Source: Eubacteriales bacterium
GTDB lineage: Bacteria > Bacillota > Clostridia > Oscillospirales > SIG627
Direction of reading: 5' to 3'
Assembly (NCBI GenBank): GCA_045658765.1
Contig: JAZOVP010000099.1
Coordinates: forward strand, 1-55,101
Length of the DNA stretch: 55,101 nucleotides
In this document: positions 16,190 through 30,952 of the stretch, piece by piece
How the letters are laid out: every line of letters starts with the position of its first letter
Numbering within the stretch: the stretch's first letter is position 1
Translations under genes and position numbers: made by a program
Notes under the pieces: generated by a model
Told to the model about the DNA's origin: nothing
The model's database searches: none
What the model saw: only the letters and a program-made list of their open reading frames with translations

Positions 16190-16258
16190 AGCGTTTCTCC
16201 TTTTTTGAATAGTATGCCGCAAAAAAAGAAAAACTATCACAAAAAAGAAAGAAATCAA

Positions 16259-16471
16259 ATGCCCTATTTCGATTATCACGCCACCGCCAAAAAACTCATT
16301 CGGGAGGGAAAGCTCATTTCATGGCATTTTGCCGAAAATCATAATGGAATTCCAAATGCCATCGTGTTGCATTTTCGCGATGAAAAGCATCCCGTTATGC
16401 CCATCCGCGCCCATCGCCACGAGGAATACCTTTTCCTTCTCGAAAAAGAAGAGCAAAAAAACAAGCCGTAA
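16259..16471 (+). CDS. Small hypothetical protein (70 aa)
   Basis: MPYFDYHATAKKLIREGK... It ends at a strong terminator and has a weak RBS. The upstream part of ORF 15848..16471 is antisense of the neighbouring gene. Confidence 0.45.
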   Translation: MPYFDYHATAKKLIREGKLISWHFAENHNGIPNAIVLHFRDEKHPVMPIRAHRHEEYLFLLEKEEQKNKP

Positions 16472-16490
16472 TCACGGCTTGTTTTTTTTA
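16459..16490. terminator. Bidirectional rho-independent terminator
   Basis: AAACAAGCCG-taatca-CGGCTTGTTT followed by TTTTT. Confidence 0.75.
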
Positions 16491-16838
16491 TAAAATTTTA
16501 TTCCATTCCGCTTCTCGAAAGCCCACCAAAATAAAATCTTCCCCAATCAAAATCGGGCGCTTCACCAGCATTCCGTCGGAGGCAAGAAGCGATATTTTTT
16601 CTTCGTCGCTTGCTTCGGGCAAACGGCTTTTCAGATCCATCGATCGATATAAAAGCCCGCTGGTATTGAAAAAGTTTTTCAGCAAAAGCCCGCTTTTTTT
16701 GTGCCACTCGCGAATTTCCTCTTCCGAGGGGGGATTTTCTTTGATATTACGCAAAGAAAATTTGATTTTGTTTTTCTCAAGCCAAAGAGCCGCTTTTTTG
16801 CAGGTGGTGCATTTCGGGTAGCAAAGAAATGTGATCAT
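16488..16838 (-). CDS. ArsC/Spx-family (arsenate reductase-like, YffB-type) protein
   Basis: N-terminal CxxC-like motif (YPKCTTCKKA), LVKRPIL motif, 116 aa. Confidence 0.7.
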   Translation of the reverse strand: MITFLCYPKCTTCKKAALWLEKNKIKFSLRNIKENPPSEEEIREWHKKSGLLLKNFFNTSGLLYRSMDLKSRLPEASDEEKISLLASDGMLVKRPILIGEDFILVGFREAEWNKIL

Positions 16839-17149
16839 GCCTCTTCTCCTTCTATCACTTCCAGATAAAAACTCACGGGGCGAAATCCGTCGTTGCAGGA
16901 AATCATGGCCGATTTGCGGTTTTTCATCCAGCCGTCAAAAAAATTCTCTTCTCCGTTTGCTAATCGTTCGGCAAACGGGCCCACCGAATCCCAAGCATTC
17001 CCGCAAAACCCATCGGGAATGATCCCGTTTTCGCAGAAAAACACTTTGCCCGGCTCCATTTCGCAGGGATTTTCGAGCGGGTTTTCATATTGTTCCATCA
17101 AATCCGCGTGCTCGGCTTTTCTCATCACCGTAATTCTAACTCTTTTCAT
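16835..17149 (-). CDS. Small Cys-rich protein resembling the TIGR04076 family (104 aa)
   Basis: MKRVRITVMRKAEHADLMEQYENPLENPCEMEPGKVFF... Only the last 104 codons of ORF 16835..17578 look coding. ATGA overlap with the downstream gene. Confidence 0.6.
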   Translation of the reverse strand: MKRVRITVMRKAEHADLMEQYENPLENPCEMEPGKVFFCENGIIPDGFCGNAWDSVGPFAERLANGEENFFDGWMKNRKSAMISCNDGFRPVSFYLEVIEGEEA

Positions 17150-17220
17150 TTCCTCGCCCCTTCCTTTTTTTATCATACCATAAATCCTCTCCCTCGCGCA
17201 AGAAAAAAGAATTTCGAATT

Positions 17221-17363
17221 TTTTCAAAAAATTTTCCCGAAAAAACCAATTGGCAGATTTTTTCGCCGATAACAATAGTGAAAGAGGCAAAAAACGCTTT
17301 TTTTCAAAAAATTTTCCCGAAAAACCCAATTGGCGCATTTTTTCGCCGATAACAATAGTGAAA
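17221..17363. repeat. Tandem direct duplication: two 63-bp copies with an 80-bp period
   Basis: Copy 1 (17221-17283) and copy 2 (17301-17363) differ at 3 positions. Both read TTTTCAAAAAATTTTCCCGAAAAA(A/C)CCAATTGGC(AG/GC)ATTTTTTCGCCGATAACAATAGTGAAA. Confidence 0.85.
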
Positions 17364-17385
17364 ACCGAAAGAGAGGAACTTTCCA

Positions 17386-18015
17386 ATGAAAAAACTTTGC
17401 AGCTTTGTTTTATTTTTGAGTATGGTTGTTTGTATGCTTCCTTCCTTCCGCCTGATCCTTTCCGATTCAAAAGCAGGTTTCGAGCGTAGCATGGGAGGAA
17501 TCGTAACCGAAGAAACAAAAAAATTCTATCTTGAAAAATTCGGCTCTGCCGAAACTCCGGAAGATCTGACCGACGCACTTCTCGCCTTTGCCCTCGAAAA
17601 TTTTGTGTATGATGACAGCGTGGTTTCTCGCCCTCAAATCGCCGATAATCATCGCTTCATTTTCAAAAATTGCTTCCACGGTGTTTGTATGGATTTTTCC
17701 GCGTTTGTGAAAAGTGCCGTTCAAGTGGTTTCCGATGAAAAGGGCTGGGATCATGTTGGCTGCGTGGTTGTTTTGGGGTATGATTCCGTGTTCAGCGAGG
17801 GGCACGCCACCAATTATATCGTGATCGAAAATCCCGATGGCACTGCCAAGATTTTCGTGCTCGATACCACGTGGGAGGTAGACAGAAACAAAAAAGGCCT
17901 CCCCCTGCAAGGACTGAATTTTTATTATCCCGTTACCAAAGAGGAAAATCGCAAAGAAAAAATCAATGCCCTTTTTGATTCCTATTATCAGTACCGCGTT
18001 TCGGTTGTTGTGTGA
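17386..18015 (+). CDS. Secreted or membrane-anchored transglutaminase-like cysteine protease domain protein
   Basis: N-terminal hydrophobic signal. A Cys-His-Asp arrangement typical of the transglutaminase core: GVCMDFSAF, GHATNY, VLDTTW. Confidence 0.6.
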   Translation: MKKLCSFVLFLSMVVCMLPSFRLILSDSKAGFERSMGGIVTEETKKFYLEKFGSAETPEDLTDALLAFALENFVYDDSVVSRPQIADNHRFIFKNCFHGVCMDFSAFVKSAVQVVSDEKGWDHVGCVVVLGYDSVFSEGHATNYIVIENPDGTAKIFVLDTTWEVDRNKKGLPLQGLNFYYPVTKEENRKEKINALFDSYYQYRVSVVV

Positions 18016-18027: not shown

Positions 18028-18339
18028 ATGATGAGTTTGTTTTTTTCCGTTCCGTGTATCATTTTTTTCGCTGCGCGCTTGTTTTTCTTCAAAACCATTG
18101 CGGATATGATTTTCTTTCTTTCCTTTGTTATGGTTGCTTTGGTTGATGTGTTTGGCGGAAACCGCGTTTTGCCGCGTGTTTTTTGCGGATTGAGCTCTGC
18201 CTCAATGTGCGCCCTTTCTTTGTTTTTCTTTTCCCAAAACGCCGTTTTCGATGTGTCGTATCTGATTTTTTCCGCACTTTGGTTTGTGATTCTCCTGGTT
18301 CCTGTTTTTTCGGATTCGCCTTGCGTTTCTTCAGACTAA
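18028..18339 (+). CDS. Small hypothetical membrane protein (about 3 TM)
   Basis: GAGGAGG RBS; strongly hydrophobic 103-aa product. Confidence 0.55.
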   Translation: MMSLFFSVPCIIFFAARLFFFKTIADMIFFLSFVMVALVDVFGGNRVLPRVFCGLSSASMCALSLFFFSQNAVFDVSYLIFSALWFVILLVPVFSDSPCVSSD

Positions 18340-18349
18340 GTGTTATAAT
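18321..18349 (+). promoter_or_regulatory. Promoter of the mini-Cas10/CARF operon
   Basis: TTGCGT, 17 nt, TATAAT with an extended -10 (TGtTATAAT), 59 nt upstream of the ATG at 18408. Confidence 0.55.
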
Positions 18350-18407
18350 TATTCCGTATACTTCCTATTATTTTATGCAAATTCAATTCCACTAAGGAGG
18401 AAGCTCA

Positions 18408-20012
18408 ATGAATATTCTTGTTAGTGCTATGAGTCTTTATACCCATCCCGAAGAAAAAGAATACCTTCTTCAAAAAGAGGGAAGAGAAATTCGGGTAAGC
18501 GCCTGCCAAACCAACGAACCCGTTCCCAAAGCACTTTCCCTTTATCTTTCCAAGAAGGGAGAAGCCCTTGATCAAATCGTGCTCCTTTGCACTCCCGCGG
18601 CACTCTCCTTCGATGCAAACGGAAAAAGCGCAGTCGATTATTTCAAAAACGCGATGCGCTCCTCGGGGATCGATGCCGAGATCCACACCCTGCTTCTAAA
18701 TGAAAAAGCCGATTCCGAATCCATCTATTTTACCGGTCTGGAACTCACCACGCTTTGCCGCACCTTTTCCGATCCCAAACTCTATATCGATTCCACCGGC
18801 GGCTTTCGCGATGCGATGATGTTTTTGATTTCCATGATGCAGCTGCTCAAGGAAGAAAAGATTCAAATCGCCGATGTGTTTTATACCGTGCTCGATCGCA
18901 AGGTTGCCTCTCCCCATCCCATTGTAAGCCGAATGGATGCCTATCGGGTATATGATCTCATCTCCGGTTATGAGGATCTTAAAACCTATGGCGATCCCAC
19001 CAAACTCAAAGAATATTTTTCGGCAAAAGATCTTTCCGCTGAAGCCGCAAAAATTCTCGATGCCCTGCAGAGCGTATATCATGAAATGAAGCTTTGCCGC
19101 GTTGCGCAAACAAACTCCGCGCTCCTTCGCCTTTCCCGTCTTCTGGAAGAATATACCCCCGCAGAAAACGCCTTTGATCGCGTGGTGGAACTTGCCGAAA
19201 CCAAATACGGCGGCATCCGCGATGGCTTCACCTATCCCGATTATATCAAGTGGTATTATGCGCATGGCTATGTTCCCCAAACCCTCGCCTTTTTCTATGA
19301 AACTCTTCCCGAAATTCTGGTGAGCGGGAAAATCCTTTATTACGGAAACCACTTAAAAGAAGTTTTGCAAAAGGATTTTGTTTCCAATGTTCCTCATCGC
19401 AAAGAACCATATTCCTTTTTCAATTCCTATTTCAAAAAAACCTTCGGATCCTATCAAGGCAAGGTGAGAAAAGCAAAAAAGGAAGTCCTTTCCTTGGCAA
19501 ATGCCGATTCCATTCCGATCGAGCAGCTTTCCCTTTCCGAATCGGGCAAAAAACTCTATGAAGGGCTTCGCTATTGCCTCCTTGGCAAGCACCATCTGCA
19601 GCTCTTGAAAAAGCCCGAAGCATCTTTCCTTCTCGAAGTGCTCCAAAACGGAAAAATGAAGGGCTTCGAGCGTGCAGAGGATCTTTGGAATTTTGATAAC
19701 ACGAAAAAGATTCTTGAAAGAATTGCGGGAAATGAAAAAATGCTGTGCGCCCTCTATGGTATCGCCCGCGAAGAAAAAGAACTCACCGATCGCGAGCACG
19801 CCCGCCTCATTCTCGCTTCGATCGACGGCAAAAACACCTTCCTCAAAGAAGGGGTCTCCGAAGAGGTGCTGGGAAATCTTCTGGAAAAATATTTCTATCT
19901 CAAGCACCAGCGCGACAGCGTTTTGCACGTTGGCCAAGATAGCGCTTCCCCCAAAACCCTGCGAAAACAGATTGCAGAAGCAATTTCCCTGATGGAGGAG
20001 ATATTAAAATGA
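18408..20012 (+). CDS. CARF (Cas_DxTHG / TM1812-type) plus HEPN protein, Csx1/Csm6-like; putative cyclic-oligoadenylate-activated RNase
   Basis: N-terminus MNILVSAMS..., then LYIDSTGGFRD (aa 128-134, a DxTHGxR-like motif), then VFYTV; this matches the DxTHG CARF pattern. The C-terminus has QRDSVLHVG (R502-X4-H507), an HEPN-type motif at the usual position. AAGGAGGA RBS. Confidence 0.55.
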   Translation: MNILVSAMSLYTHPEEKEYLLQKEGREIRVSACQTNEPVPKALSLYLSKKGEALDQIVLLCTPAALSFDANGKSAVDYFKNAMRSSGIDAEIHTLLLNEKADSESIYFTGLELTTLCRTFSDPKLYIDSTGGFRDAMMFLISMMQLLKEEKIQIADVFYTVLDRKVASPHPIVSRMDAYRVYDLISGYEDLKTYGDPTKLKEYFSAKDLSAEAAKILDALQSVYHEMKLCRVAQTNSALLRLSRLLEEYTPAENAFDRVVELAETKYGGIRDGFTYPDYIKWYYAHGYVPQTLAFFYETLPEILVSGKILYYGNHLKEVLQKDFVSNVPHRKEPYSFFNSYFKKTFGSYQGKVRKAKKEVLSLANADSIPIEQLSLSESGKKLYEGLRYCLLGKHHLQLLKKPEASFLLEVLQNGKMKGFERAEDLWNFDNTKKILERIAGNEKMLCALYGIAREEKELTDREHARLILASIDGKNTFLKEGVSEEVLGNLLEKYFYLKHQRDSVLHVGQDSASPKTLRKQIAEAISLMEEILK

Positions 20013-20629
20013 AAAAATATATTAGCACCATCACCCTTCAAACCAAAGGCGCGATCAAGCACAATTATCGCGATTCCAAAGGAATCGAAACCCCTCGTAT
20101 CCGCACCGCATTCCCCATTCTTCAGCAGATCAGCGATACCGTGGAAAAAGGGGAGGAAATTTCGGTGATCACCATCGTGGTGGGCGGCGAGGAAAACAAT
20201 GAAAATCTTCGCGCCTTCCGCGAGGAATTGGAAGAACTCAAAAATCAAAAGGGCTTCTTCTATACCCAAGAATGTATCCTGAAAGAGGAATCTGAAGAGG
20301 TGGAATCCATTCTTTCGCTCTTTTTGGCAATCACCAAAAAAGTTTCCGATGGCGATCGGCTTTATGCTTGCATCACCTATGGCACCAAGCCCATCGCCAT
20401 GGTTACCAATATGGCGCTCCACTATGCCTATCGCATCAAAAAAGATGTTTTGATCGAAGCGGTCAAATACGGCATGAAAGATTGGAACGCCACGGAAGAG
20501 CCCGTAGGCATTCTCTATGATACCACCGCTCTTTTCTATCTTGATTGTTTGATTGATCGCATTTCCTCCATGAAACTCGAAAACCCCGAAGAAGCGCTTC
20601 GCGCTCTGATTGAAACGGAGGGTGTTTGA
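20009..20629 (+). CDS. Stand-alone CARF-like protein (degenerate DxTHG motif CITYGTKP); candidate ring nuclease or regulatory subunit
   Basis: 206 aa. Same strand-helix pattern as the gene A N-terminus (MKKYISTITL, ISVITIVVGG, LYACITYGTKPIAMV, VKYG). ATGA overlap with gene A. Confidence 0.4.
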   Translation: MKKYISTITLQTKGAIKHNYRDSKGIETPRIRTAFPILQQISDTVEKGEEISVITIVVGGEENNENLRAFREELEELKNQKGFFYTQECILKEESEEVESILSLFLAITKKVSDGDRLYACITYGTKPIAMVTNMALHYAYRIKKDVLIEAVKYGMKDWNATEEPVGILYDTTALFYLDCLIDRISSMKLENPEEALRALIETEGV

Positions 20630-21774
20630 TGAGTTTTTCATCCGAATCCGATTTTGAATGGGAAGATCCCTTGGAGGAAATCTCGGAAGAATTCGAAGAA
20701 ATGTCGGAAGAAACCGAAGAAAAATTGCTTTTTTCCGGCCTTTCTTTCAATTCGAAAGGCAAAAGCGAAATTCAGGAATATATCAAAAAATTGAATTGGC
20801 CGAAACTCAAGGAAGAGCTCAATCTTTGGGGTCGGAAGTTTTCGGAAAGTCAAGGTGCCGAGCGCATCTTTGCCACCGAACGCATCTTAAAGCTTTTGGA
20901 AGACAATATTTTCGAATTCAGTTTTTGCGATAGCGATGCCCTTGCTGAAAATGCCAATTCTATTTTGCACATCAAATTCATCGGTGAACAAGATCATCCG
21001 ATTCGCTTTGTGAAAAGAATCTATCCGAAAAAAGTGTTTTTCGATGCTGTGTTCTATACCCTCGGATATATCACCTCGCCCAATCAATCGCCCGAGCGAG
21101 CCGCGGCGCGCGCGTATCATCACGATCACGAAAAAGGTGCGCAGTATGTTACGTATTTAACTTGGATGCTGGAATATTTCTCCCGCAGAAGAAGGGAAGA
21201 ATTGACCCGTTTGCATAAAAAAAACAAGCAACTTTTCCCCCGAGTTGTTTCGCAAGATGCCTCGTTTGAAGCGCAAAACACCGTCGAAAAGGAAGTGGCG
21301 GAGCGAAGCGAATCTGCCCGCGAAACCGAAGCGATCGTTTCCCTTGCCGCGCTTTGTTTTGATAAAATGCAGCTGGATCAAATGCTTGTGATCGGCGACG
21401 GAGCCATCGGTAAAGTGAAAAAAGTAAGCGGAAAAAACCTGCAGCTTTTCTATTCGTTCCGCCTTGTCAATTTCACCCGTTTTGCCATCGCAAAGGTATC
21501 GGAAAATGAAGATCGCATTCTGATGCGCGCCGCCGAACACGGCTTTTTATCGTTTTCCACCGAAATCACAGAGTTTTGCTATTCGAATCTTGTGAAAGCC
21601 GCTCTTTCTCCGTATATAATCGAAAAAAAGCTTTATTCGTTGGAAGATGGCAAAAAAGTTTTGCAGCAAAGCGCAGTGGCTGATTATCTAAAAATAGATC
21701 CGGGCACCTTAAGCCCGCAATTTCAGGCGGCCGCCCGCTATCTTGCCACCCATTGGAAATACAAACGTCCCTGA
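20629..21774 (+). CDS. Hypothetical protein with an acidic N-terminus; no recognisable domain
   Basis: Its ATG overlaps the upstream TGA by 1 nt, and GGAGG lies 8 nt upstream. The first 30 aa are very acidic (SESDFEWEDPLEEISEEFEEMSEETEE). A possible HTH-like segment near the C-terminus: QSAVADYLKIDPGTLSPQ. Confidence 0.6.
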   Translation: MSFSSESDFEWEDPLEEISEEFEEMSEETEEKLLFSGLSFNSKGKSEIQEYIKKLNWPKLKEELNLWGRKFSESQGAERIFATERILKLLEDNIFEFSFCDSDALAENANSILHIKFIGEQDHPIRFVKRIYPKKVFFDAVFYTLGYITSPNQSPERAAARAYHHDHEKGAQYVTYLTWMLEYFSRRRREELTRLHKKNKQLFPRVVSQDASFEAQNTVEKEVAERSESARETEAIVSLAALCFDKMQLDQMLVIGDGAIGKVKKVSGKNLQLFYSFRLVNFTRFAIAKVSENEDRILMRAAEHGFLSFSTEITEFCYSNLVKAALSPYIIEKKLYSLEDGKKVLQQSAVADYLKIDPGTLSPQFQAAARYLATHWKYKRP

Positions 21775-21789
21775 AAGAAAGGAAGCAAA

Positions 21790-22977
21790 GTGAAATCCGT
21801 TTTACCGTTTGAAACCTTGCCAAAAGGTCTGCCGTTTTGGCGCAATGTTTTATATTGTGCCGTGGATCTTTCCGGAATTCAGAATTTTATCTTTTCTCAA
21901 ATGGATCAGAATACCACCCGCGAAGAGGCAAAATTTCGCTCTGAATTTGTGGAAAGCATCGCGATCAAAGTGAAGGAAAAATTAAAAGAATTCCCCGAAT
22001 ATCTCTTTGGCAATGCTTCGGGAGGGAATTTCACCTGCGCCTTTTCCCCCTCGGTGGATCAGGCGGCGCTCAGGGAAGTTTTGGATCAAATGCAGCGTTC
22101 GCTTTTTGTGGAAACGAGGGGCAATCTCACTTTCTATTATGCACTCCAATCGGCAAAGTGCGTTTCTTCGAAGCGATTCCAAAAAGGTCGCTCCCTCCAT
22201 GTTTCCGCCTTGATCGGAAAATCTTTGGAGGCGGAAAAATATCATTGCAAAAATCTTCTTTCGGCAAAAAATTCCGATGCCGATGGCATGTTTGCGATCC
22301 CCTCCGCGAAAAGCACACCCAAAAAAAGAAGCAGCGATCAAGCGGTGTGCAAATTCGATTTGGATCATCTGGGAGCGTTTTTCCGTGAAATCTCGGAATA
22401 CGATCGCAAAATCTGTGTTGGCCAAGCGCTCGATCAAGCCATCAAAGAAGCCCTGAAAAAAGATCCGCGCATCGAAACGGTTTTTGCAGGGGGCGATGAT
22501 ATCTTTTTCCTTTGCCCGCTCGATTCCGCGCTTTCCGTGATCGCCTCTTTTTACCGTCGCCTTCGAAATTTGTTGAAAAAAAGCGAATTTCTGGCAGAAT
22601 ATGCCGAGCATAATTTTGGCATTTCAGGCGGGGTTTGCGCGCTTCGGAATCAGCTCGATACCATTCCGTTTCTTTCCTATTTCCGCAGTGCGGAAAATGC
22701 CCTTGCCACCGCCAAAACCAAAGGCAAAAAGAATTGTGTGTATTTCAAAATTCCGGGTGGGGAAGAAATGCAAATTTCTTGGAAAAATCTCCTCTTCCTT
22801 GCCGATGCCCTATCGCGGGAAAAAGAAACCGTTTTTTCTCAGTATCGCTTTGGCGGAGCGGATTATATCAATATCCCTCTTCTTTGCGATCAGCTCACTT
22901 TTTGCGAAAAGCAAAAATCAAATTTCTCAAAAAAGGATGTAAAGCGTCTTTATGAAATCAAAAAGATGTCTCTATGA
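21790..22977 (+). CDS. Mini-Cas10-like nucleotide cyclase: Palm1 plus Palm2 with intact GGDD; no HD domain and no full D4 domain
   Basis: AVDLSGIQNFIF (aa 24-35, the Cas10 Palm1 signature), SGGNFTCAF, KFDLDHLGAFF (Palm2 start), FAGGDDIFFL (GGDD at aa 234-237, nt 22489-22500), GISGGVCAL and AENALATAKTKGKKNCVYF. Only 395 aa; GTG start. Confidence 0.6.
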   Translation: MKSVLPFETLPKGLPFWRNVLYCAVDLSGIQNFIFSQMDQNTTREEAKFRSEFVESIAIKVKEKLKEFPEYLFGNASGGNFTCAFSPSVDQAALREVLDQMQRSLFVETRGNLTFYYALQSAKCVSSKRFQKGRSLHVSALIGKSLEAEKYHCKNLLSAKNSDADGMFAIPSAKSTPKKRSSDQAVCKFDLDHLGAFFREISEYDRKICVGQALDQAIKEALKKDPRIETVFAGGDDIFFLCPLDSALSVIASFYRRLRNLLKKSEFLAEYAEHNFGISGGVCALRNQLDTIPFLSYFRSAENALATAKTKGKKNCVYFKIPGGEEMQISWKNLLFLADALSREKETVFSQYRFGGADYINIPLLCDQLTFCEKQKSNFSKKDVKRLYEIKKMSL

Positions 22978-23635
22978 AATTGTTCTCACCCCGCTTGAAA
23001 ACAGCCGTTTCGAGGCGATGCCAAAAGCCGAAGATTTGGAAAAAGCCCTCCCCGAAAGCATTTCCTCGGATTTGTTTGTGGATGGATTTTCCCATAAAAG
23101 AATCGATCTCGGCGTAGGATTTGAAGCAAGTTGCGAGGAGCAATATCATCATCTCAAGCGCCTGAAAGGGGCAAAGATCATTTCCGATCGCGCTCGCAAT
23201 CTTTCGATCGATCAAATGATTTGTCGCCTTGAAGAAGGGGAATTGAAAGTGGAAAACGGTGTGATCGGTTTTTCCGAGGCCTATTCTCGCGCTTTTCGCA
23301 CGATTCGCTTATCGGATTCCGATGCCTTGTTTGGAGTGGAACTAAAAAAAGGCGCCCGCTTTCGCTGTTTTGTGAAAAGCAAAAGCTCCTCCTTCCCCGA
23401 AACGATTCTGATCTCGGGCTCTCCCTTTTTGTTGCAAAAAATATCCCCCCTCTCGCCGCCCGCCTCTCTTGGCGTGTTGCAAAAGAAAGTTTTTCTCTCG
23501 GAAGGAAAAAACTTTGCTTCCAATCCCAAATCCCGATTCAAACTCAGCTTTGACCCCGAAAAAAATCTTCCTGTTTTGTGTGCGGGGAGTGTGCTCGATC
23601 CAAACGAGGTTGAAGGCGTTTTTATTGAAAAATAA
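22952..23635 (+). CDS. Hypothetical protein; possible reduced Csm4/Cmr3 (Cas5-like RAMP) partner of the Cas10-like protein
   Basis: Overlaps the cas10-like gene by 26 nt. The N-terminus CLYEIVLTPLENSRF ... ISSDLFVDGF resembles the Csm4 N-terminal strand plus the S-x-D-x-[IL]-F motif. No clear G-rich loop. Confidence 0.3.
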   Translation: MKSKRCLYEIVLTPLENSRFEAMPKAEDLEKALPESISSDLFVDGFSHKRIDLGVGFEASCEEQYHHLKRLKGAKIISDRARNLSIDQMICRLEEGELKVENGVIGFSEAYSRAFRTIRLSDSDALFGVELKKGARFRCFVKSKSSSFPETILISGSPFLLQKISPLSPPASLGVLQKKVFLSEGKNFASNPKSRFKLSFDPEKNLPVLCAGSVLDPNEVEGVFIEK

Positions 23636-23644
23636 GGAGAATTT

Positions 23645-26600
23645 ATGAAGCCCTATCGAATTTACGACGTAAGAAAAGAAAAACTTTTTCTTCCCTTTGT
23701 TTTTTTGCCGAAATGGGAAAGGGAATACGAGGAATTTCTTTCGGAATACGATCCCGAAACCGGCTTTTTGATGACCAAAACCAAAACAAGAAACAGACAA
23801 AAAAACGAGGAACAGGAAGTGTATTTTCTGTATTTGGGTGCCAAGCATTACCGCCTCGATTTTTTTCAACAAAGATATAGAGATGTGGCATTCGCCATAA
23901 GAAGTTGCGATGGAATTTCCCAAAAAAACACCATCACCATCGCGGCCGAAGCCATCCGCATCATCGGAATTCCCAAGGATTTCTTTTTTATGAGCTCCGA
24001 TTGGCAAAGCTTTTGGGAAAATCATAAGGGATCCGATCTTTTCCCCACCTATGTGCCGAATTTTAGCACCGAAACGATCAAAACCACCTCCGAAGATCCT
24101 GCCGAACTGATTGCTTCCGCCCAGAAAATGTCTCATTTTTTGGAAAACAGTCCGTTTTTCGGAGGATCGTCAATGGCAACTGCCCCCTCGGTCTTTTTCC
24201 GATCCCGCGCTCTGGTCGATGTTTTTCTGGAAGAAAAGAAATCGCGGAAAGAAATCGAGGTCGAACCCGATCCTCTCTGGCAGTTCCTTTTGGAAACCAG
24301 CGAAAAGAAGAAAGAATTCGAATCCAATTTCTTGATCGAATGGCAGTATCTTAGTTTTGATCGCAAAGGAAAGGTCGATGATGCGCACCTTTGCGAATTC
24401 ACCATTGCCGCGCCCGATCAAACCATCCGTCAAAACGAAGCGCGCTTCGAAGCATTCAGAAAAGAAATCGGCATCGCAAAAGAGGATTCTGATTCCTCCA
24501 TCGAAACCTTGCGCGAGAGCTATTTGAATAAACTCGGCTCGGGCACCATGATCGAAATTCCCCTCAATCGTGCCCCCGATAAAAGCGGCAAGCAGCCGAT
24601 GCTGTTTGGCAGCGTGGTGCGCTTTGAATTTCCCGGCATCACCGCCGCAGAAGGCGAAGAAGTAAAACTCCCCGAGGATTACTTTGAAAAAAACGAGCAT
24701 TTTTCCATTCCTTGGAAGATGATTGTTTCTTTCAAAGACGATTCCGATGCCACTTTAAAAGAAATTTCTGCCTCCGGCACGCTCTGTGAAAGGGTTTCCA
24801 CCGATTATCAAAATTATAAATCCGCTCTGGGCGTGATGGTCAATAGAATCGCCGATCTTAGCTGGAAATCCGCGGAAGATATTATCATCCGCCAAAATCT
24901 TTCTCCGTTTGAAGTAAAGCCGGAAGAAGATTTTGTTTCCAAGCGCCTCAATCCCAATCAAAAAGAAGCCATTTCCCTTGCGCTTTCCGCACCCGATTTT
25001 TGCCTCATCCAAGGGCCTCCCGGCTCGGGCAAAACCACCATCATCACGGAAATGGTGCGCAAATTTGTCAATCGCGGCGAGCGCGTTCTCGTGTGCTCGA
25101 AGGGCAATCTTGCAGTGGATAATGTTTTGGAAAAATGGATCGAGGAAAATAAAATGCGCCCCGATTCCCATCTTTGTGTGCGCCTCGGTCAGAATTTCAA
25201 ACTCCCGTTTTTAAAGGATTATACCCCCGCAAAAGTAACCGAACGCGTGCAAGAAAAGGCATACAACAAAACCCGCGAAGAAAGAGATCAGCTTTCCCAA
25301 AAAGTGGAAGACAAAATCCGTTTTTTGGAAGAAAACCGCGAAAAGATCGAAGCGTTTTCCGAGTTTTGCACGTTTGTTTTCGATCTTACCGAAACCCTCC
25401 TTCTTCTCTTGCAGTCGTATCAAAATGCACCTTCCTATCTGAATTGGATGAGCTCCGTTCTCTCCGAAAAAACCTCTCTTGCATCCTCCGCTTATTCGAT
25501 CGTATACAATCAGGTTTTCCTGCCCGTTTGCCGAGCCCTGTTTTCTTCTGAGGTTCCGAGCGAAAAAACCGTAAAAGAATTCGATGAAGGGCTTGATCGG
25601 GTGTTTCAAATCGCGCAAACGCTCAAAGCCCCCGCCGAGTATGATTTCATCGCGCGCCTTTTCGCAAAAAATTGGATTGCTCTTTGGAATCAAAACGAAG
25701 CGGCACTGCTTTCAAAAATTGGCATTGTTTTGGCGAAAAACGAAAAAGAAACCGAATGGAAGAGCATCTCAAATCCCGCCCTTTTGTTGCTTTCGCTTCC
25801 CGATTTCGGCAAAACTCCCGATCCTTTTGCCGTGCTCCGCTTTGCGCGCACCCTTCCCGAAGAAATCAGCCGGTTTTCCGATCGTGAAATCCTCAAAATC
25901 GAGCGCATCCGCACTGTTTTAAATGATTGGCTTCAGGAACTCGGAAGCGGTGTTTCCACCCCCTTGGAAAGAACCGTTGTGCTCGATAGCATCCCCGTGA
26001 TCGGCTCCACTTGCATGGGAATTATGTCCGATAATGATTTTAAAGGCGTAAAATACGATGTTGTGATTGTGGATGAAGCCGGCCAAATCCCGATTTTTGA
26101 TTTGATGGTACCCCTCATCAAAGCCAAAAAAGTGGTTCTCATCGGCGATCATCTTCAGCTTCCTCCGATGAACGAAGATGAGTTTTTAGATTATCTTGAC
26201 AAAACGGAATATTTAGAAACCGAAGAAGGGGAGAAAAAAGAAATTCTTCGGAAAATCGGCGAGTGGTATAATGTGAGTTTATTCGAAAAACTCTATCGAA
26301 CCGCCTCTTTGAATCCTGCCAAAAAAATGCTCGATACCCAGTATCGTATGCATCCCGATATTTGCCAATTTATTTCCAAATCCTTTTATAACGGCGAATA
26401 CAAAGCGCACGATTCCACCAAAAACCGTATTCTTCGGATTGCGGGATTCGATCAGCCCATCTATTTTTACGATACCTGCACCCTCCCCGAAAAAGCGCGT
26501 GCAGAAACCTATCATAATCCCGGCTATTCCAATACCGTCGAAGCAGAAAAGATCTCCGATATTCTCGTCAAAATTCTCCTTGCCATTCGAGAGGGGAATT

Positions 26601-27082
26601 ATGAAGGCGAAAATCTTGTGCTTCGCGATAAAGCCACCGATGAAATCATCGGGTATGATATCGGCGTGATTTCGGGCTATAAAAAGCAGGTCAAAGCCAT
26701 CTCGAATCTCACTCAGAAAAAGCTCGAAGCGTATATGTCTCCCGAAGAAGCCGATCTTCATATGAGCCGCTTTATGATCAGCTCCGTCGATTCCTTCCAA
26801 GGAAGAGACAATCAGATCATCCTCTTCTCAATGACCCGAAGCAACCCCGAAGGCAAGATCGGCTTTTTAAAAGATGTGCGCCGTTTGAATGTGGCAATGA
26901 CCCGCGCCAAATCTCTTCTGATTATGGTGGGCGATTCCGCCACCCTCACCGCCTGCCCCGCATCTTGTGCCCATGATGCCTCCCAAAAGGTGGCCGATCT
27001 TTATCGCGCCCTTATTTTGCACTGCAACCAAAAGCATTATTATCATCCGATGAAAGGAGAAGAATCCGATGGCCAAACCTGA
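23645..27082 (+). CDS. SF1 helicase (Upf1/DNA2-like, AAA_11/AAA_12 type) with an uncharacterised ~440-aa N-terminal region
   Basis: LNPNQKEAI, GPPGSGKTT (aa 457-465), VIVDEAGQ (aa ~807-814), GDHLQLPP, QYRMHPDI, VDSFQGRDNQ and LNVAMTRAKS. A ~290-aa helical insertion separates motifs Ia and II. AAGGAGA RBS. Confidence 0.8.
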   Translation: MKPYRIYDVRKEKLFLPFVFLPKWEREYEEFLSEYDPETGFLMTKTKTRNRQKNEEQEVYFLYLGAKHYRLDFFQQRYRDVAFAIRSCDGISQKNTITIAAEAIRIIGIPKDFFFMSSDWQSFWENHKGSDLFPTYVPNFSTETIKTTSEDPAELIASAQKMSHFLENSPFFGGSSMATAPSVFFRSRALVDVFLEEKKSRKEIEVEPDPLWQFLLETSEKKKEFESNFLIEWQYLSFDRKGKVDDAHLCEFTIAAPDQTIRQNEARFEAFRKEIGIAKEDSDSSIETLRESYLNKLGSGTMIEIPLNRAPDKSGKQPMLFGSVVRFEFPGITAAEGEEVKLPEDYFEKNEHFSIPWKMIVSFKDDSDATLKEISASGTLCERVSTDYQNYKSALGVMVNRIADLSWKSAEDIIIRQNLSPFEVKPEEDFVSKRLNPNQKEAISLALSAPDFCLIQGPPGSGKTTIITEMVRKFVNRGERVLVCSKGNLAVDNVLEKWIEENKMRPDSHLCVRLGQNFKLPFLKDYTPAKVTERVQEKAYNKTREERDQLSQKVEDKIRFLEENREKIEAFSEFCTFVFDLTETLLLLLQSYQNAPSYLNWMSSVLSEKTSLASSAYSIVYNQVFLPVCRALFSSEVPSEKTVKEFDEGLDRVFQIAQTLKAPAEYDFIARLFAKNWIALWNQNEAALLSKIGIVLAKNEKETEWKSISNPALLLLSLPDFGKTPDPFAVLRFARTLPEEISRFSDREILKIERIRTVLNDWLQELGSGVSTPLERTVVLDSIPVIGSTCMGIMSDNDFKGVKYDVVIVDEAGQIPIFDLMVPLIKAKKVVLIGDHLQLPPMNEDEFLDYLDKTEYLETEEGEKKEILRKIGEWYNVSLFEKLYRTASLNPAKKMLDTQYRMHPDICQFISKSFYNGEYKAHDSTKNRILRIAGFDQPIYFYDTCTLPEKARAETYHNPGYSNTVEAEKISDILVKILLAIREGNYEGENLVLRDKATDEIIGYDIGVISGYKKQVKAISNLTQKKLEAYMSPEEADLHMSRFMISSVDSFQGRDNQIILFSMTRSNPEGKIGFLKDVRRLNVAMTRAKSLLIMVGDSATLTACPASCAHDASQKVADLYRALILHCNQKHYYHPMKGEESDGQT

Positions 27083-29000
27083 TACCGAACTAGCCCTCAC
27101 CGCGCTAAAATACGATCTTATCGATGAAAACACGATTCGCTTTGTTCGCATCGGATATCCTCTTCTCAGCGTGCGCGCAGATATTATGACCTATCAGGAT
27201 AGCGCTCGTTTTTCTCTGATAAAAAAATATCTCCACCGTTTGGTTACGGGCGATCAGCCCGATGCCAAAGAGCCGGTTTCTTATGTGAAAGATCGCGTGG
27301 AAGCGGCTTCGCTTCTCGGTTTGGATCAAGAATTGTTTGATGTGGCAAGCTATTATTATGATGAGCTCATCATATCCGGCAAAATCCACGATTCCTCCCG
27401 AGGTGCGCTTGCCGGCGCCGCCCCCGAGGGCGATCCCGCGCTTTCTCGCATCCGCTCCTCCCGCCGCATCGAAACCCGCCTTGTGGTCGATCCTTTCAGC
27501 GCCGAAATCTATGGCAGCAAGATATCCGAACTCCATGCAAGAACTCTGGAAGAGATCGATCGGGCCCATGGCAACGATATTTGCCTTCCCTATCTTCCCG
27601 ATTTCACTTCAAAGCCCGAAGCGCTGGAAGAGTTGATCAATCAAAAAAATTTCTCCTTCGAAGATTGCACCGAAGAATATATGACCGCGCGTTTGATGGA
27701 GCAGAATATGCCCCACGGCACCACGGGTATCGAAATCGTTTCCGAAGAAGAGTGCGATCCCGTTGAGGTTTTCTATCTGCCGTATTATCTTGCCCTCAAG
27801 CGCACAGAAAACGGCGAAGAATTTTTCCTCCATAGCCATTCCAGCACAAAACCCATCGATCTTTTTCCCATCATGGATTCTGATCATGAGTTTTTCCGTC
27901 GCCTTATGAGAGGGTATTTTGAAACCGAGCACCACGGCATTCTCAAATATGTGCTCACCGATCTGGTTCAAATCCCGCTCACCGAAAAAGGAAACAAACT
28001 TGCAGAAAATGTTTCGCTGGATGAAAACGGAAATTATAAGGCATTGCTTTCCGATTTTCAGCTTGCTCTTCTTTGTATGGAAAAAGAAAACGAAGCGCAG
28101 AATTTGATTCACCTCGTTTCCAAAGGTGTTGGCGTGATCCCTTCGCGCGAATCGGGTCGCCTTGTTCATTTTGTTCTTTCCGAGGAGCAAAAAGAGATCT
28201 GTCAAAAGATTGTGGAAAATCCGTCTGAGCGCTATGCCATCGTTCTTCCCATTTTAGAAAAAGCGGCCGAAGAAGGGAATCCCGATGCCGTTTATCATCT
28301 GGCAAATTGCCTCTTCTCGGGCCGCGGCACGAAAGAAAATAAAGAAAAAGCATATTCTCTCTATCAAAAAAATGCCGAAAATGGTCATGCTTGGTCTCTT
28401 TTCCAGCAGTCGGTTTGCCTTCTGTTTGGGGAAGGGGTGGAAATCGATCTTGAAAAAGCGCAGGATCCGCTCGAGAAAATCCCCGCCGATGCTCCTTGCT
28501 ATGGCCTCGCGCTTCATAATCTTGGCGTACTGTATACCAAAAGAGCCAATAAAATCGAAAAAGAAGATCCCGAAAAAGCCAAAGAATTCTATCAAATTGC
28601 CGTCAAAAAACTCCTCCTTGCCTGCAATCAGCGTTTCGTGAATTCCTTCACCTCGGTTTCGGCCGCCGCCTTGTATCACGAGGGTAAGGGCGTGGAAAAA
28701 AATATGGAAACGGCTGTTCAGTATTATGAAGATGGCGCAAAGCGCGGCCATATCTTTGCGCAATATATACTCGGTGCTTGCTGTGTGGCAGGGATGGGAA
28801 TCCAAAAAGATCTTGTGCGTGCAAAAAAATTGCTTTCTGCTGCCACTCGCGCCATTCCCGAGGATAGAATTTTCTTTTTCGGCTCCAAGCCCTTCATTTC
28901 CTATCCGCATCTTTGCATTTCAGAAAAGCAAATTGAAGAGCGCAAAGAAACCATAGAAAAATATCAAAAGAAAGCAAAAGACCTCTTATCCAAACTCTAA
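27069..29000 (+). CDS. Sel1-repeat (TPR-like) protein with an uncharacterised ~400-aa N-terminal region
   Basis: Overlaps the helicase gene by 14 nt. The C-terminal ~220 aa has several Sel1-type repeats (AAEEGNPDAVYHLANCLFSGRGTKENKEKAYSLYQKNAENGH, YYEDGAKRGHIFAQYILGACCVAGMGIQKDLVRAKKLL). Confidence 0.7.
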   Translation: MAKPDTELALTALKYDLIDENTIRFVRIGYPLLSVRADIMTYQDSARFSLIKKYLHRLVTGDQPDAKEPVSYVKDRVEAASLLGLDQELFDVASYYYDELIISGKIHDSSRGALAGAAPEGDPALSRIRSSRRIETRLVVDPFSAEIYGSKISELHARTLEEIDRAHGNDICLPYLPDFTSKPEALEELINQKNFSFEDCTEEYMTARLMEQNMPHGTTGIEIVSEEECDPVEVFYLPYYLALKRTENGEEFFLHSHSSTKPIDLFPIMDSDHEFFRRLMRGYFETEHHGILKYVLTDLVQIPLTEKGNKLAENVSLDENGNYKALLSDFQLALLCMEKENEAQNLIHLVSKGVGVIPSRESGRLVHFVLSEEQKEICQKIVENPSERYAIVLPILEKAAEEGNPDAVYHLANCLFSGRGTKENKEKAYSLYQKNAENGHAWSLFQQSVCLLFGEGVEIDLEKAQDPLEKIPADAPCYGLALHNLGVLYTKRANKIEKEDPEKAKEFYQIAVKKLLLACNQRFVNSFTSVSAAALYHEGKGVEKNMETAVQYYEDGAKRGHIFAQYILGACCVAGMGIQKDLVRAKKLLSAATRAIPEDRIFFFGSKPFISYPHLCISEKQIEERKETIEKYQKKAKDLLSKL

Positions 29001-29031
29001 ATTTTTCATCAAAAAAAGAAAGGAGAAGTAT

Positions 29032-29403
29032 ATGGGAATTTTTATCAATTTATCCAATCATCCCAGTAGGGAATGGGGCGAAAATCAGCTTGCCGCCGCC
29101 CGAAAAATCGGCAAGATCACAGATATCCCCTTTCCTCCCATCGATCCGCAAAGCACCCCCGAGCAAATCCAAAAAATCGCCAAATCTCTTTTCTCCTTCA
29201 TTCGTGCGCTGGGCAAACCCGTGGTGATGATTCAGGGCGAATTTACCTTCACCTATCAAATGGTTCGTTTGCTTCAGGAGGCAGGCATTCGCGCTGTTTC
29301 CTGTGCCACCAGGCGCGTGTGCGAAGAATTTGTAAACCAAAAGGGCGAAACCGTGAAAACCTCTTATTATCGTTTCGAGGGTTTTCGCGATTACTACCTC
29401 TAA
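29032..29403 (+). CDS. Small alpha/beta protein, possibly Csx20-like CRISPR-associated accessory family
   Basis: 123 aa: FINLSNHPSREW...QL, VVMIQGEFTFTYQMVRLLQEAGIRAVSCATRR and a C-terminal YRFEGFRDY. This matches my recollection of Csx20-type proteins. AAAGGAGAA RBS. Confidence 0.35.
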   Translation: MGIFINLSNHPSREWGENQLAAARKIGKITDIPFPPIDPQSTPEQIQKIAKSLFSFIRALGKPVVMIQGEFTFTYQMVRLLQEAGIRAVSCATRRVCEEFVNQKGETVKTSYYRFEGFRDYYL

Positions 29404-29416
29404 AGCATTCTTTCCC

Positions 29417-29447
29417 AAATCCCCTCGGATTCCCGAGGGGATTTTTT
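29417..29447 (+). terminator. Rho-independent terminator closing the mini-Cas10 operon
   Basis: AAATCCCCTCGG-attc-CCGAGGGGATTT followed by TTT. Confidence 0.8.
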
Positions 29448-29466: not shown

Positions 29467-29495
29467 TTGCAAAAAAATTCTAATAATGGTAGAAT
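29467..29495 (+). promoter_or_regulatory. Sigma-A type promoter of the HTH-serine dehydratase gene
   Basis: TTGCAA, 17 nt, TAGAAT with a TGn extension. It places the transcript start after the ORF-track ATG at 29486. Confidence 0.55.
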
Positions 29496-29518
29496 TTTAT
29501 CAGAAGAAGGAAAGGAGA

Positions 29519-30952
29519 ATGAATGTGGATTTTTCCGAAAAGATTCGCTTTTTAAGAAAAAAGAATAAGCTCAGTCAGGCAGAGCTCGGGAAAATGGTGG
29601 GTGTTTCCAATCGCGCCGTTTCCAAGTGGGAAAACGGGGAAAGCTTCCCCTCCACCGATACCCTTCTTTCCGTGGCAACCGCCTTTGGGGTAACCCTTGA
29701 TTTCTTTTTGAAAAACGATGCCAAGGATTCTGCCAAAAAAATTGTGGAAGCGGGAATGGAATCGCTCCGTGAACTTTATAAAATCGGCATCGGCCCCTCG
29801 AGTTCGCATACCATGGGCCCCGCCCGAGCGGCAAATCTGTTTCGCAATCGCTTCCCCGAAGCCACCCGATTTGAAGCGGTGCTTTGCGGCTCCCTTGCAA
29901 AAATGGGCAAAGCCCATCGCGCCGATGTTTGCCTCAAAGAATCCTTTGCTCCGGCCGAATGCGAGGTAATTTTCGATATTAAAATGCGAAAGCTTTCCCA
30001 TCCAAACACGTTCTTTTTATCGGCATATCGCGGCGCGGAAAAGATCGGGTCTTGGGAAGTGGCAAGCGTTGGCGGCGGCAGTATCGAAGTGAAAGGCGAG
30101 AGGGAATATCATCCCCGCCGCATCTATCCCCATAATTCCTTCACCGAAATTGCCGAATTCTGCCGAAAAAATAAAATCCGCCTCTGGCAATATGTGGAAC
30201 ACTATGAAGGCAAAGAAATCTGGGATTATCTTCGCGAAATTTGGCAGGCAATGCTCTCTTCGATCGAAGAAGGTCTTTTAGCCGAAGGCGAACTCTATGG
30301 CGGGCTTGGGGTAAAGCGCAAGGCAAAATATCTTTATTCCCAGCACCATATCGATGAAAATTCCGAAACCCGCGAAAATCGCCTTGTTTGCTCTTTTGCG
30401 TTTGCCGTGAGCGAGCAAAACGCATCGGGTGGCAAGGTTGTTACCGCGCCCACTTGCGGTTCGAGCGGAATTTTGCCCGCAGTCCTCAAATATGTGAGCG
30501 AAAAAAGGGGCTTTGAAGAAATTCAAATCCTTCGCGCCCTTGCCACCGCAGGGCTGATCGGAAATCTGATCAAAACCAATGCCTCCATCAGCGGGGCAGA
30601 ATGTGGGTGTCAGGCGGAAGTGGGTTCTGCTTGTGCAATGGCAGCGGCGGGCTTGGGCGAAATTTATTCCATGTCCGTTTCCCAAATCGAATACGCCGCG
30701 GAAGTGGCGCTCGAGCACCATCTCGGGCTCACGTGCGATCCCATTCGCGGGCTTGTGCAAATCCCTTGCATCGAGCGAAATGCCGTGGCAGCAATGCGCG
30801 CCATCCATGCAATCAATCTTGCCAATTTCCTGGCAGATTCCAGAAAAATATCGTTTGATACCGTGGTAAAAACTATGTATGAAACCGGAAAAGATCTTCC
30901 TCGCCGCTACCGTGAAACAGGCGAGGGCGGACTTGCAAAACTCTATCGGTAA
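29519..30952 (+). CDS. XRE-type HTH domain fused to an iron-sulfur L-serine ammonia-lyase (SdaA-like, single chain)
   Basis: N-terminus IRFLRKKNKLSQAELGKMVGVSNRAVSKWENGES (HTH_3). Then IGIGPSSSHTMGP, APTCGSSGILPAV and SGAECGCQAEVGSACAMAA (4Fe-4S Cys ligands). Start set at ATG 29519. Confidence 0.75.
   Translation: MNVDFSEKIRFLRKKNKLSQAELGKMVGVSNRAVSKWENGESFPSTDTLLSVATAFGVTLDFFLKNDAKDSAKKIVEAGMESLRELYKIGIGPSSSHTMGPARAANLFRNRFPEATRFEAVLCGSLAKMGKAHRADVCLKESFAPAECEVIFDIKMRKLSHPNTFFLSAYRGAEKIGSWEVASVGGGSIEVKGEREYHPRRIYPHNSFTEIAEFCRKNKIRLWQYVEHYEGKEIWDYLREIWQAMLSSIEEGLLAEGELYGGLGVKRKAKYLYSQHHIDENSETRENRLVCSFAFAVSEQNASGGKVVTAPTCGSSGILPAVLKYVSEKRGFEEIQILRALATAGLIGNLIKTNASISGAECGCQAEVGSACAMAAAGLGEIYSMSVSQIEYAAEVALEHHLGLTCDPIRGLVQIPCIERNAVAAMRAIHAINLANFLADSRKISFDTVVKTMYETGKDLPRRYRETGEGGLAKLYR

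Follow-up and report, generated by a model that had tools for sequence, protein, structure and literature searches.

The subject of this report is a stretch of 55,101 nucleotides (contig JAZOVP010000099.1, assembly GCA_045658765.1) from a member of the Oscillospirales, called the window below, and a compact gene cassette of about 11-12 kb that it carries. The cassette combines a Cas10-family cyclase and the proteins of a cyclic oligoadenylate (cOA) signalling pathway with a Upf1-like helicase and with several proteins that match no library. Its core consists of eight open reading frames (ORFs), g1 to g8, which are co-directional and tightly packed on the plus strand between positions 18408 and 29403, with overlaps of 4, 1, 26 and 14 nt and gaps of 15, 9 and 31 nt. 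The start codon of g3 is the ATG at 20629, as in the database protein P0028. An initial annotation, made from the sequence alone, had described this eight-gene layout with the same overlaps, and the ORF coordinates and spacing agree with it. It had also treated the eight genes as one complete transcription unit. Comparison of the window with other loci (labelled within the series L001 to L052 where a label is needed) shows instead that the conserved unit comprises ten genes, since the upstream genes gm2, encoding a predicted lipoprotein, and gm1, encoding a small membrane protein, belong to it as well. This unit is probably served by two promoters, an element upstream of gm2 and an extended -10 promoter in front of g1, so that the eight ORFs of the earlier proposal stand while its unit size does not and its single promoter probably does not.

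The promoter in front of g1 is a candidate of the sigma-A type read from the sequence at 18321-18349 (+), with the arrangement TTGCGT-17 nt-TG-t-TATAAT that the initial annotation had already reported. A consensus scan did not list this site because its -35 box is weak, with matches at only three of six positions; it is accompanied by an extended -10 box, and TGnTATAAT boxes are found at the equivalent place before g1 in L005 and L007. At the other end of the cassette, the terminator expected from the same annotation could be located at 29421-29447 (+). It is an intrinsic terminator, read from the sequence, in which a G+C-rich stem of 8 bp and a loop of 4 nt (CCCCTCGG-ATTC-CCGAGGGG) are followed by a T6 run. 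Immediately 3' of it, a new promoter-like site (TTGCAA-17-TAGAAT) precedes an unrelated gene, which encodes a helix-turn-helix (HTH)-serine dehydratase protein.

At least 13 independent contigs carry the gene set in this order, with Cas10 identities of 34-67%, and this recurrence argues that the association of the genes is more than chance. The same genes are present in the same order wherever the contig is long enough (L001, L003-L010 and L052), and the cassette proteins are 27-76% identical to those of the window. The flanks are unrelated from one locus to the next and include genes for an Opp transporter, a Fic protein, a methyltransferase, a ceramidase and a peptidase of family M28. Whether the short Cas10 keeps its neighbours in other genomes had been proposed as a check of the initial annotation, and the constant order within differing flanks answers it in the affirmative. 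Some neighbours are defence-like, namely an N6_N4 methyltransferase with DUF4325 in L007, a giant AAA-trypsin protein in L004, and SNF2, DUF2201 and AAA_3 proteins in L049. The last of these loci represents a distant branch, in which Cas10 is 34% identical and g3 is recovered with an E-value of 9e-16; all ten genes are nevertheless present, and only the csx20 gene (g8) has moved to the front. What can be seen of the partial contigs L048 and L051 fits this picture.

The cassette is rare, and it is conserved among gut Clostridia. Among 5.8 billion non-redundant proteins, the relatives of Cas10 (g4) amount to 17 cluster representatives, those of g5 to 8 clusters and those of g3 to 9 clusters, and an exhaustive search of 1.84 billion proteins with a hidden Markov model (HMM) returned 19 representatives of g3. 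The named hosts are all metagenome-assembled genomes of the Oscillospirales (Acutalibacteraceae, Faecousia and Oscillospiraceae), and as this group is poorly cultured the restriction is also ecologically interesting. No cassette match was found among phages and plasmids in IMG/VR, INPHARED and PLSDB.

The cyclase is encoded by g4 (21790-22977, +), whose product of 395 aa was identified with Pfam, NCBIfam and PDB profiles as a Cas10 protein with two Palm domains and without an HD domain. It matches the Pfam family Cas10-Cmr2_palm2 (PF22335) at 3.4e-15, with 56.8 bits against a cutoff of 27 bits, and the Csm1 family TIGR02578 at 3.5e-17. A profile of 17 homologues matches Csm1 in the PDB at Palm1 (residues 23-68) and at Palm2 and D4 (residues 185-374) with an E-value of 9.5e-10, and an hhalign comparison with type III-A Cas10 proteins of 426-440 aa from Bacteroidales gives a probability of 99.7 and an E-value of 1e-26 over residues 22-349. 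The motifs GGDD, D-x-SGIQ and KLDLD are invariant in the 17 homologues, and DLDxLG is present in all the orthologues examined. All these lines of evidence agree with the two-Palm, GGDD-bearing Cas10 cyclase of the initial annotation. The nearest canonical relatives of g4 are these Bacteroidales proteins, at an identity of only 22-26%. In the type III-A loci that encode these short Cas10 proteins of about 425-440 aa (L016, positions 9288-17829; also L011-L014, L018 and L019), Cas10 likewise lacks an HD domain and adjoins Cas6, Csm2, Csm3, Csm4, Csm5 and two CARF-PD-(D/E)xK proteins.

The next gene, g5 (22952-23635, +), encodes a small protein of 227 aa that resembles the repeat-associated mysterious proteins (RAMPs) of CRISPR systems, as seen from an AlphaFold2 (AF2) model and a Foldseek search. 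The model has a predicted local distance difference test (pLDDT) score of 78.6, and its three best matches in the PDB are all Csm4 chains of the crystallised Csm1-Csm4 cassette (6o75_B, 6o79_B and 6o74_B); the best has a probability of 0.99, an E-value of 1e-3 and a template modelling (TM) score of 0.42. The subsequent matches are mostly chains of the Cas6, Cmr3, Csm4 and Csm3 types. The N-terminal SDLF of g5 resembles the HSDTL motif of Csm4, and an overlap of 20-41 nt between the g4 and g5 ORFs is kept in every locus. By sequence, g5 has relatives in its own family only; no match to it was obtained in Pfam, NCBIfam or PADLOC, and an identification as Csm4 by sequence was rejected, the likeness being one of fold. 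What had been annotated as a possible Csm4-like protein is supported by the fold of the model and not by sequence profiles. With moderate confidence, g5 is probably a reduced Csm4/Cas5 protein that is translationally coupled to Cas10.

Three further genes encode proteins expected to respond to, or to remove, the product of such a cyclase. The first gene of the core, g1 (18408-20012, +), encodes a CARF-HEPN protein of the Csx1/Csm6 type (534 aa), which matches the PADLOC profiles CARF2--CARF_HEPN over its full length (1.2e-36 and 4.4e-33) and Csx1/Csm6 (6.6e-25). Its CARF motif DSTGGFRD and its HEPN motif QRxSxLHVG (R-X4-H) are invariant in seven orthologues; the R-X4-H motif had been correctly anticipated, whereas the CARF motif is of the form DSTGG and not, as annotated, DxTHG. 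By these profiles and motifs, g1 is predicted to be an RNase effector activated by cOA. The product of g2 (20009-20629, +; 206 aa) is the second, CARF-only protein of the initial annotation and was recognized by PADLOC (CARF2--CARF, 2.6e-52 over the full length) and NCBIfam (TIGR02221, the TM1812 family, 5.6e-9). No other protein of the cassette is as well conserved (52-71% identity), and g2 may be a second ring nuclease or may buffer cOA.

The last gene, g8 (29032-29403, +; 123 aa), encodes a member of the Csx20 family, which the same annotation had suggested as a possibility. The PADLOC Csx20 profile matches residues 3-121 along positions 1-114 of its 114 positions (1.1e-31). The NCBIfam equivalog CAS_Csx20 matches at 6.8e-12 with 45.8 bits, under its cutoff of 70 bits, and g8 is for this reason regarded as a divergent member; its orthologues carry a precomputed Pfam match to MJ1673. 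From this family membership, g8 is predicted to be a ring nuclease for cyclic tetra-adenylate (cA4) and the off switch of the pathway. Degradation of cA4 by Csx20 has been demonstrated in experiments, and ring nucleases are encountered only alongside effectors that depend on cA4 (bioRxiv 10.1101/2024.09.24.614671). Because Csx20 is present, the signal to be expected from the cassette is most likely cA4.

The remaining genes of the core are of a different nature. The gene g3 (20629-21774, +), always directly upstream of the Cas10 gene, encodes an orphan protein of 381 aa that is mostly helical in its AF2 model and has an acidic, disordered N-terminus. No match was found in Pfam, NCBIfam, PADLOC, PHROGs or the PDB, even when E-values up to 5 were allowed for the PDB, Pfam and PADLOC. 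The AF2 model is helical and poor (pLDDT 54), its Foldseek search was uninformative, and a very remote Cas11-like domain would be compatible with it. Identifications as Cas11, Cas7 or a sigma factor were rejected in the absence of any library match, the hhalign comparison with Csm2-5 being negative as well; an HTH-like look of the C-terminus is an impression only. Relatives of g3 are found only beside Cas10, including the distant members in L048, L049 and L051, and the protein is predicted to be a partner or a regulator of the cyclase. In L051 (124-3209) a g3-like protein of 311 aa precedes a longer Cas10 of 501 aa and a third gene cut by the contig end, called as 223 aa up to that point, which suggests that the pairing of g3 with Cas10 extends beyond the ten-gene cassette.

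The largest gene, g6 (23645-27082, +), encodes a Upf1-like helicase of superfamily 1B with 1145 aa, identified with Pfam, PADLOC and the PDB. Its core occupies approximately residues 416-1105, with an insertion of about 275 aa; the roughly 415 aa on its N-terminal side are an orphan region. The matches include AAA_12 (2e-51), AAA_11 (4e-42) and, in PADLOC, the Mokosh helicase MkoA (PDLC03920, 6e-115); the NCBIfam families PLuB, ProA and Hhe are matched too, as are IGHMBP2 (4e-36), DNA2, Upf1 and Sen1 in the PDB. All nine orthologues possess the helicase motifs I, II, III, IV and VI, and motif V is missing from just one of them. The N-terminal 415 aa alone match nothing in Pfam, PADLOC or PHROGs, and the similarity to MkoA must therefore lie in the helicase core. 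Both parts of the earlier description, a Upf1/DNA2-like helicase and a novel N-terminal half, are in agreement with these profiles and structures. The protein is predicted to be a nucleic-acid sensor or motor. Within the orphan region, an insertion of about 60 aa (24020-24240, approximately residues 126-200) is absent from orthologues of 1085 aa; the helicase of L052, the closest relative, is of similar length to that of the window (1133 aa).

The ORF of g6 runs into that of g7 (27069-29000, +; 643 aa), to which it is translationally coupled, and this overlap of 1-14 nt is kept in all loci but L005. Since both the g4/g5 and the g6/g7 overlaps are conserved, it can be argued that the two pairs of products form stoichiometric complexes. 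In g7 an orphan N-terminal domain (approximately residues 1-390) is followed by C-terminal Sel1 repeats (1.7e-19), and residues 389-591 are the only ones reached by matches to PDB profiles. Four loci (L005, L006, L008 and L049) lack the Sel1 part. The repeats are thus dispensable and not the essential sensor, and what is conserved in g7 is the orphan domain at its N-terminus. The domain composition given by the initial annotation, a Sel1 protein with a novel N-terminus of about 400 aa, is borne out in this way, with the correction that the Sel1 repeats are not among the conserved parts. The N-terminal domain has no match in Pfam, PADLOC, PHROGs or the PDB profiles, and a search of metagenome contigs of the Joint Genome Institute (JGI) returned no match outside cassettes and none without Cas10. 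In all, five of the ten cassette proteins or domains match no library.

Two genes upstream of the core complete the conserved unit, and both point to the cell envelope. The gene gm2 (17386-18015, +) encodes a predicted lipoprotein or secreted protein of 209 aa, with an N-terminal signal peptide and a lipobox-like Cys predicted from the sequence, and orthologues occupy the same position in L001, L003, L004, L006-L009, L049 and L052. It has no match in Pfam, PADLOC or PHROGs. Its alignment contains invariant Cys, His and Asp residues at the G.C.D, H..N and D.T positions, which could possibly form a transglutaminase- or papain-like triad. The gene gm1 (18028-18339, +) encodes a small hydrophobic membrane protein of 103 aa and is recognized by its position: a gene of 101-108 aa lies there in every locus but L010, at a weak sequence similarity of 22-35% between loci, and no relatives were detected in the profile-library searches.

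Directly upstream of gm2, a repeat search revealed a tandem promoter-like element of two 65-nt copies (17219-17283 and 17299-17363, +), which are spaced by 80 nt and 95% identical. Each consists of an A/T tract followed by AAAACC[AG]A-N17/18-CGATAA[CT], and on the plus strand of the window the element occurs only at this place. The repeat at 17219-17363 was considered as a guide array and rejected, as it is a duplicated promoter-like element. The element is also found upstream of the gm2 orthologue in L001 (5539-5571), L003 (2673-2705), L004 (1045-1077), L007 (5427-5459) and L009 (1787-1819), and looser copies could be recognized by eye at this position in L006 (two in tandem) and L049. Its nucleotide sequence is conserved even where the proteins of the loci compared share only 40-50% identity. 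The element is without a sigma-A consensus and vaguely reminiscent of promoters of alternative sigma factors, which suggests that the envelope genes of the cassette are under dedicated control, perhaps of an inducible kind.

Four loci possess an optional eleventh gene 3' of csx20, without counterpart in the window. It encodes another lipoprotein (L001, 17506-18303; L003, 14638-15423; L005, 10686-11426; L009, approximately 13855-14634) of about 250-265 aa, with the lipobox LATGCS, a predicted transmembrane segment and a His/Gln-rich tail, and has no significant match in Pfam or PADLOC. The promoter-like element precedes this gene as well in L001 (17411-17443), L003 (14543-14575) and L009 (13758-13790), and by eye in L005.

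The machinery by which a canonical type III system recognizes RNA with a CRISPR RNA (crRNA) was not found around these genes. No CRISPR-like array, and no guide array of another kind, was detected in the window with Tandem Repeats Finder, a repeat finder and a periodic k-mer scan, nor in 13 related loci whose flanks were covered for up to 10 kb, and the same scan finds the arrays of 10 canonical type III loci. Canonical type III-A HMMs find Cas10 in every cassette, with E-values of 1e-17 to 6e-27, and the Csm2, Csm3 and Csm5 HMMs find nothing in the six-frame ORFs of the window and the 13 loci. No Cas7 match was obtained with PADLOC, Pfam or NCBIfam in the eight core proteins of the window, and hhalign gave no Cas7, Cas11 or Cas5 signal in g3 or in the N-termini of g6 and g7. 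Cas6 is without a match in the window and in the 13 loci with their flanks. The initial annotation had reported that the array, Cas7, Cas11 and Cas6 are all lacking, and had named an array with a cas7/cas6/cas11 module just outside the window as the case that would speak against it; the scans and HMMs lead to the same absence in the wider set of loci, and no such module lies within 10 kb in any of the 13.

The interpretation favoured here, to which we give about even chances, is that this ten-gene cassette is an array-less descendant of type III-A systems that acts as a crRNA-independent innate defence based on cOA, with a cyclase licensed by the helicase, g7 and g3. The products of g4 and g5 would form a minimal Cas10-Csm4 cyclase module producing cOA, most likely cA4. 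Binding of cA4 by the CARF domain of g1 would switch on the HEPN RNase and lead to growth arrest or abortive infection, and g8, possibly with g2, would degrade or buffer cA4 and reset the system. In place of a Cas7/Cas11/crRNA sensor, the cyclase would be licensed by the 5'-3' helicase g6, the orphan domain of g7 and g3: g6 would engage foreign RNA, single-stranded DNA or a replication intermediate, and the complex so formed would relieve the module of Cas10, Csm4 and g3 or stimulate it. As an optional adaptor, the variable Sel1 repeats would bind other proteins. The signalling half of this scheme (Cas10, CARF-HEPN, CARF and Csx20) is well supported by family membership and motifs. The sensor half is inferred from strict co-conservation and operon architecture only: the set and order of the genes are kept in at least 13 contigs with unrelated flanks, which argues for a functional tie of the helicase, g7 and g3 to Cas10. 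A role in defence is in keeping with the defence-like neighbours of several loci and with the recurrence of Upf1-like helicases in defence systems.

Several observations weigh against this interpretation. Sensing by g3 or by the N-termini of g6 and g7, or a contact of these with Cas10, is what we infer, and the three have no detectable homologues outside the cassette from which a function could be read. It is just as conceivable that the helicase acts downstream as an effector, or that it is an independent Mokosh-like module which merely travels with the other genes. For the assignment of g5 to Csm4, the basis is a single AF2 model whose TM score is moderate and whose E-value is borderline, and hhalign gives a probability of about 1% for this pair. 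The negative results for arrays, cas6, cas7 and cas11 cover the window and the 13 loci, the rest of the host genomes lying outside that scope. All instances of the cassette come from metagenome assemblies, and the flanks in the window are housekeeping genes (alanine racemase, serine dehydratase) rather than a defence island. The main uncertainty concerns the way in which the cyclase is switched on and not the existence of the cassette.

The scope of these negative results leaves room for an accessory module that depends on components encoded elsewhere. The Cas10/Csm4-like pair would then dock on Cas7/Cas11/crRNA backbones, with arrays, provided by other loci, and the helicase and g7 would be ancillary, for example in the unwinding or turnover of target RNA. 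Canonical Csm4 is indeed known to bind the 5' tag of the crRNA. Many type III loci, according to the 2025 classification of CRISPR-Cas systems (PMC12669027), have no arrays of their own and use arrays in trans. Such dependence is nevertheless unlikely. Docking on a foreign backbone is improbable for a Cas10 that is only 22-26% identical to canonical ones and for a g5 without sequence similarity to Csm4; Cas7, Cas11 and Cas6 are absent within 10 kb in all 13 loci; and the cassette moves between genomic contexts as a self-contained unit.

The strong MkoA match of g6 raises a second alternative, also unlikely, in which two or three independent systems are habitually adjacent: a cOA set made of g1-g5 and g8, and a stand-alone, Mokosh-like g6-g7 pair acting on phage RNA or DNA, with no flow of information from helicase to cyclase and another kind of trigger for the latter. 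Upf1-like helicases do head several stand-alone defence systems, and defence genes tend to cluster. Against this, the main clade has g6 and g7 embedded in the operon, where g5 precedes and g8 follows them at distances of 9 and 31 nt in the window, and the ten genes persist together in L049 in spite of the divergence of its Cas10. No phospholipase D (PLD) or other nuclease partner of the Mokosh type was found in the cassette, and outside cassettes no match was seen for the N-terminus of g7 in the JGI contigs, or for those of g6 and g7 in PADLOC, Pfam and PHROGs.

A guard mechanism comparable to that of Panoptes, in which cOA is made constitutively and infection is sensed through its depletion by phage sponges or ring nucleases, appears very improbable. 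It is the way in which mCpol, the only characterized Cas10-type enzyme without an array, operates (PMC12657230), and g4 does match the Pfam mCpol family (PF18182), at a sub-threshold level (E-value 0.003, 18.4 against 26.4 bits) and over residues 216-248 only. But g4 aligns with Cas10 over the full two-Palm length and not with the single-Palm mCpol, proteins of the Csx1-type CARF-HEPN class are known to be activated and not repressed by cOA, a Csx20 ring nuclease of its own would oppose a constitutive signal, and no role would be left for the helicase. Least probable of all is a function outside defence, as a host circuit of cOA regulation or RNA quality control or as an addiction module of a mobile element, which would fit the housekeeping flanks of the window and the envelope proteins (gm2, gm1 and the optional lipoprotein) that travel along unexplained by an immune model, but is at odds with the membership of Cas10, Csx1, Csx20, CARF and the Upf1-like helicase in families known from antiviral systems and with a patchy, rare distribution at variable positions, some of them beside defence-like genes.

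The licensing of the cyclase by the helicase, g7 and g3 remains in our opinion the preferred interpretation. Stated in its boldest form, the cassette would be the first full Cas10-Csm4 cyclase outside CRISPR, in which the helicase, g3 and the N-terminal domain of g7 replace the crRNA filament and a generic feature of foreign RNA or DNA, rather than a spacer match, triggers cA4 synthesis; gm2 and gm1 might add a second output at the level of the membrane. This version, in which an innate system of type III ancestry would stand in evolution between CRISPR-guided and CBASS-like signalling, is put forward tentatively, with a likelihood that falls a little short of an even chance. To our knowledge, type III signalling has so far been tied to crRNA-guided recognition of RNA, and mCpol, the single-domain enzyme of Panoptes, is the only one known to have left CRISPR. 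If the preferred interpretation is true, the cassette would show that adaptive immunity has given rise to innate immunity by a second and independent route, and it would reveal a new mode of licensing Cas10. The hypothesis can be tested directly, as the catalytic sites (GGDD, Walker A and R-X4-H) can be mutated and the expected cA4 measured. The cassette would also provide three to five protein families for study whose fold and function are entirely unknown.

Other features of the window lie outside the cassette. In the product of the ORF directly 3' of it (29486-30952, +), an XRE-type HTH_3 domain at the N-terminus is joined to the beta and alpha domains of an L-serine dehydratase. Such a combination of regulator and enzyme is unusual, and the protein gives a chance-level match (E-value 6e-4) to the Csm4 HMM. 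Further downstream, the ORF at 32555-33673 (+) contains imperfect repeats of 30-36 nt rich in Lys, Glu and Ala codons (32560-32715) and ends in a C-terminal DUF6273 domain. The only Rfam match in the window is a NiCo (nickel/cobalt) riboswitch at 44162-44236 (+), which scores 50.6 bits against a gathering threshold of 37 bits and lies upstream of the ORF at 44300-45442. No tRNA was found in the window.

Among known systems, the cassette is closest to the type III-A (Csm) systems. Its Cas10 is a two-Palm GGDD enzyme whose best match in the PDB and NCBIfam is Csm1, it is adjacent to a small RAMP whose model finds its best fold match in Csm4, and the downstream logic is the same, cOA being combined with a CARF-HEPN effector and a ring nuclease. 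In contrast to a canonical locus such as L016, where Cas6, Cas10, Csm2-5 and CARF nucleases are assembled, the cassette is without Csm3/Csm5, Csm2, Cas6, Cas1/2 and an array, its g5 falls short of the length of Csm4 by about 100 aa and does not resemble it in sequence profiles, and g3, the helicase and g7 are added as obligatory components. It fails as a CRISPR-Cas effector module, since Cas7, Cas11, Cas6 and an array were not found in the searched loci. The proteins g1, g2 and g8 are by profile ordinary members of the ancillary cOA pathway of type III systems (Csx1/Csm6 and the ring nucleases Crn1-3, Csx16 and Csx20); the difference is that they are attached here to an array-less cyclase and not to a Csm or Cmr complex.

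With Panoptes (mCpol and 2TM-beta), the cassette shares the use of a Cas10-family cyclase in immunity without crRNA, arrays or Cas7 (PMC12657230). There, mCpol is a single minimal Palm and constitutive 2'3'-c-di-AMP represses a membrane toxin, whereas the cassette contains a two-Palm Cas10, a Csm4-like partner, a CARF-HEPN RNase, ring nucleases and a built-in helicase. An assignment to Panoptes was rejected on account of the mCpol score under threshold, the two-Palm enzyme and the activatable CARF-HEPN effector. The likeness to Mokosh is that of a Upf1-like helicase of the MkoA type, and the differences are the N-terminus of g6, which matches nothing, and the position of the helicase in a cOA signalling operon. 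Neither PLD nor MkoB is matched by any cassette protein in Pfam or PADLOC, and an assignment to Mokosh was rejected because no PLD nuclease is fused or adjacent. Upf1-like helicases also head the defence systems Hhe, ProA, PLuB and CoCoNuT (CnuH), and such helicases have been proposed to engage phage RNA or single-stranded DNA (PMC11090510).

In PADLOC the cassette is recognized by its separate components only, which are the CARF, Cas10, Csx20 and helicase proteins. No description of the gene set was found in the searchable literature, including the 2025 CRISPR-Cas classification (PMC12669027), the 2020 classification of CARF proteins lying outside that scope. The opinion of the initial annotation that this is not a described system is shared on both grounds. 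The cassette is a real and conserved entity, as yet undescribed as far as can be searched, and it is best understood as type III-derived cOA signalling in which the sensor appears to have been replaced.

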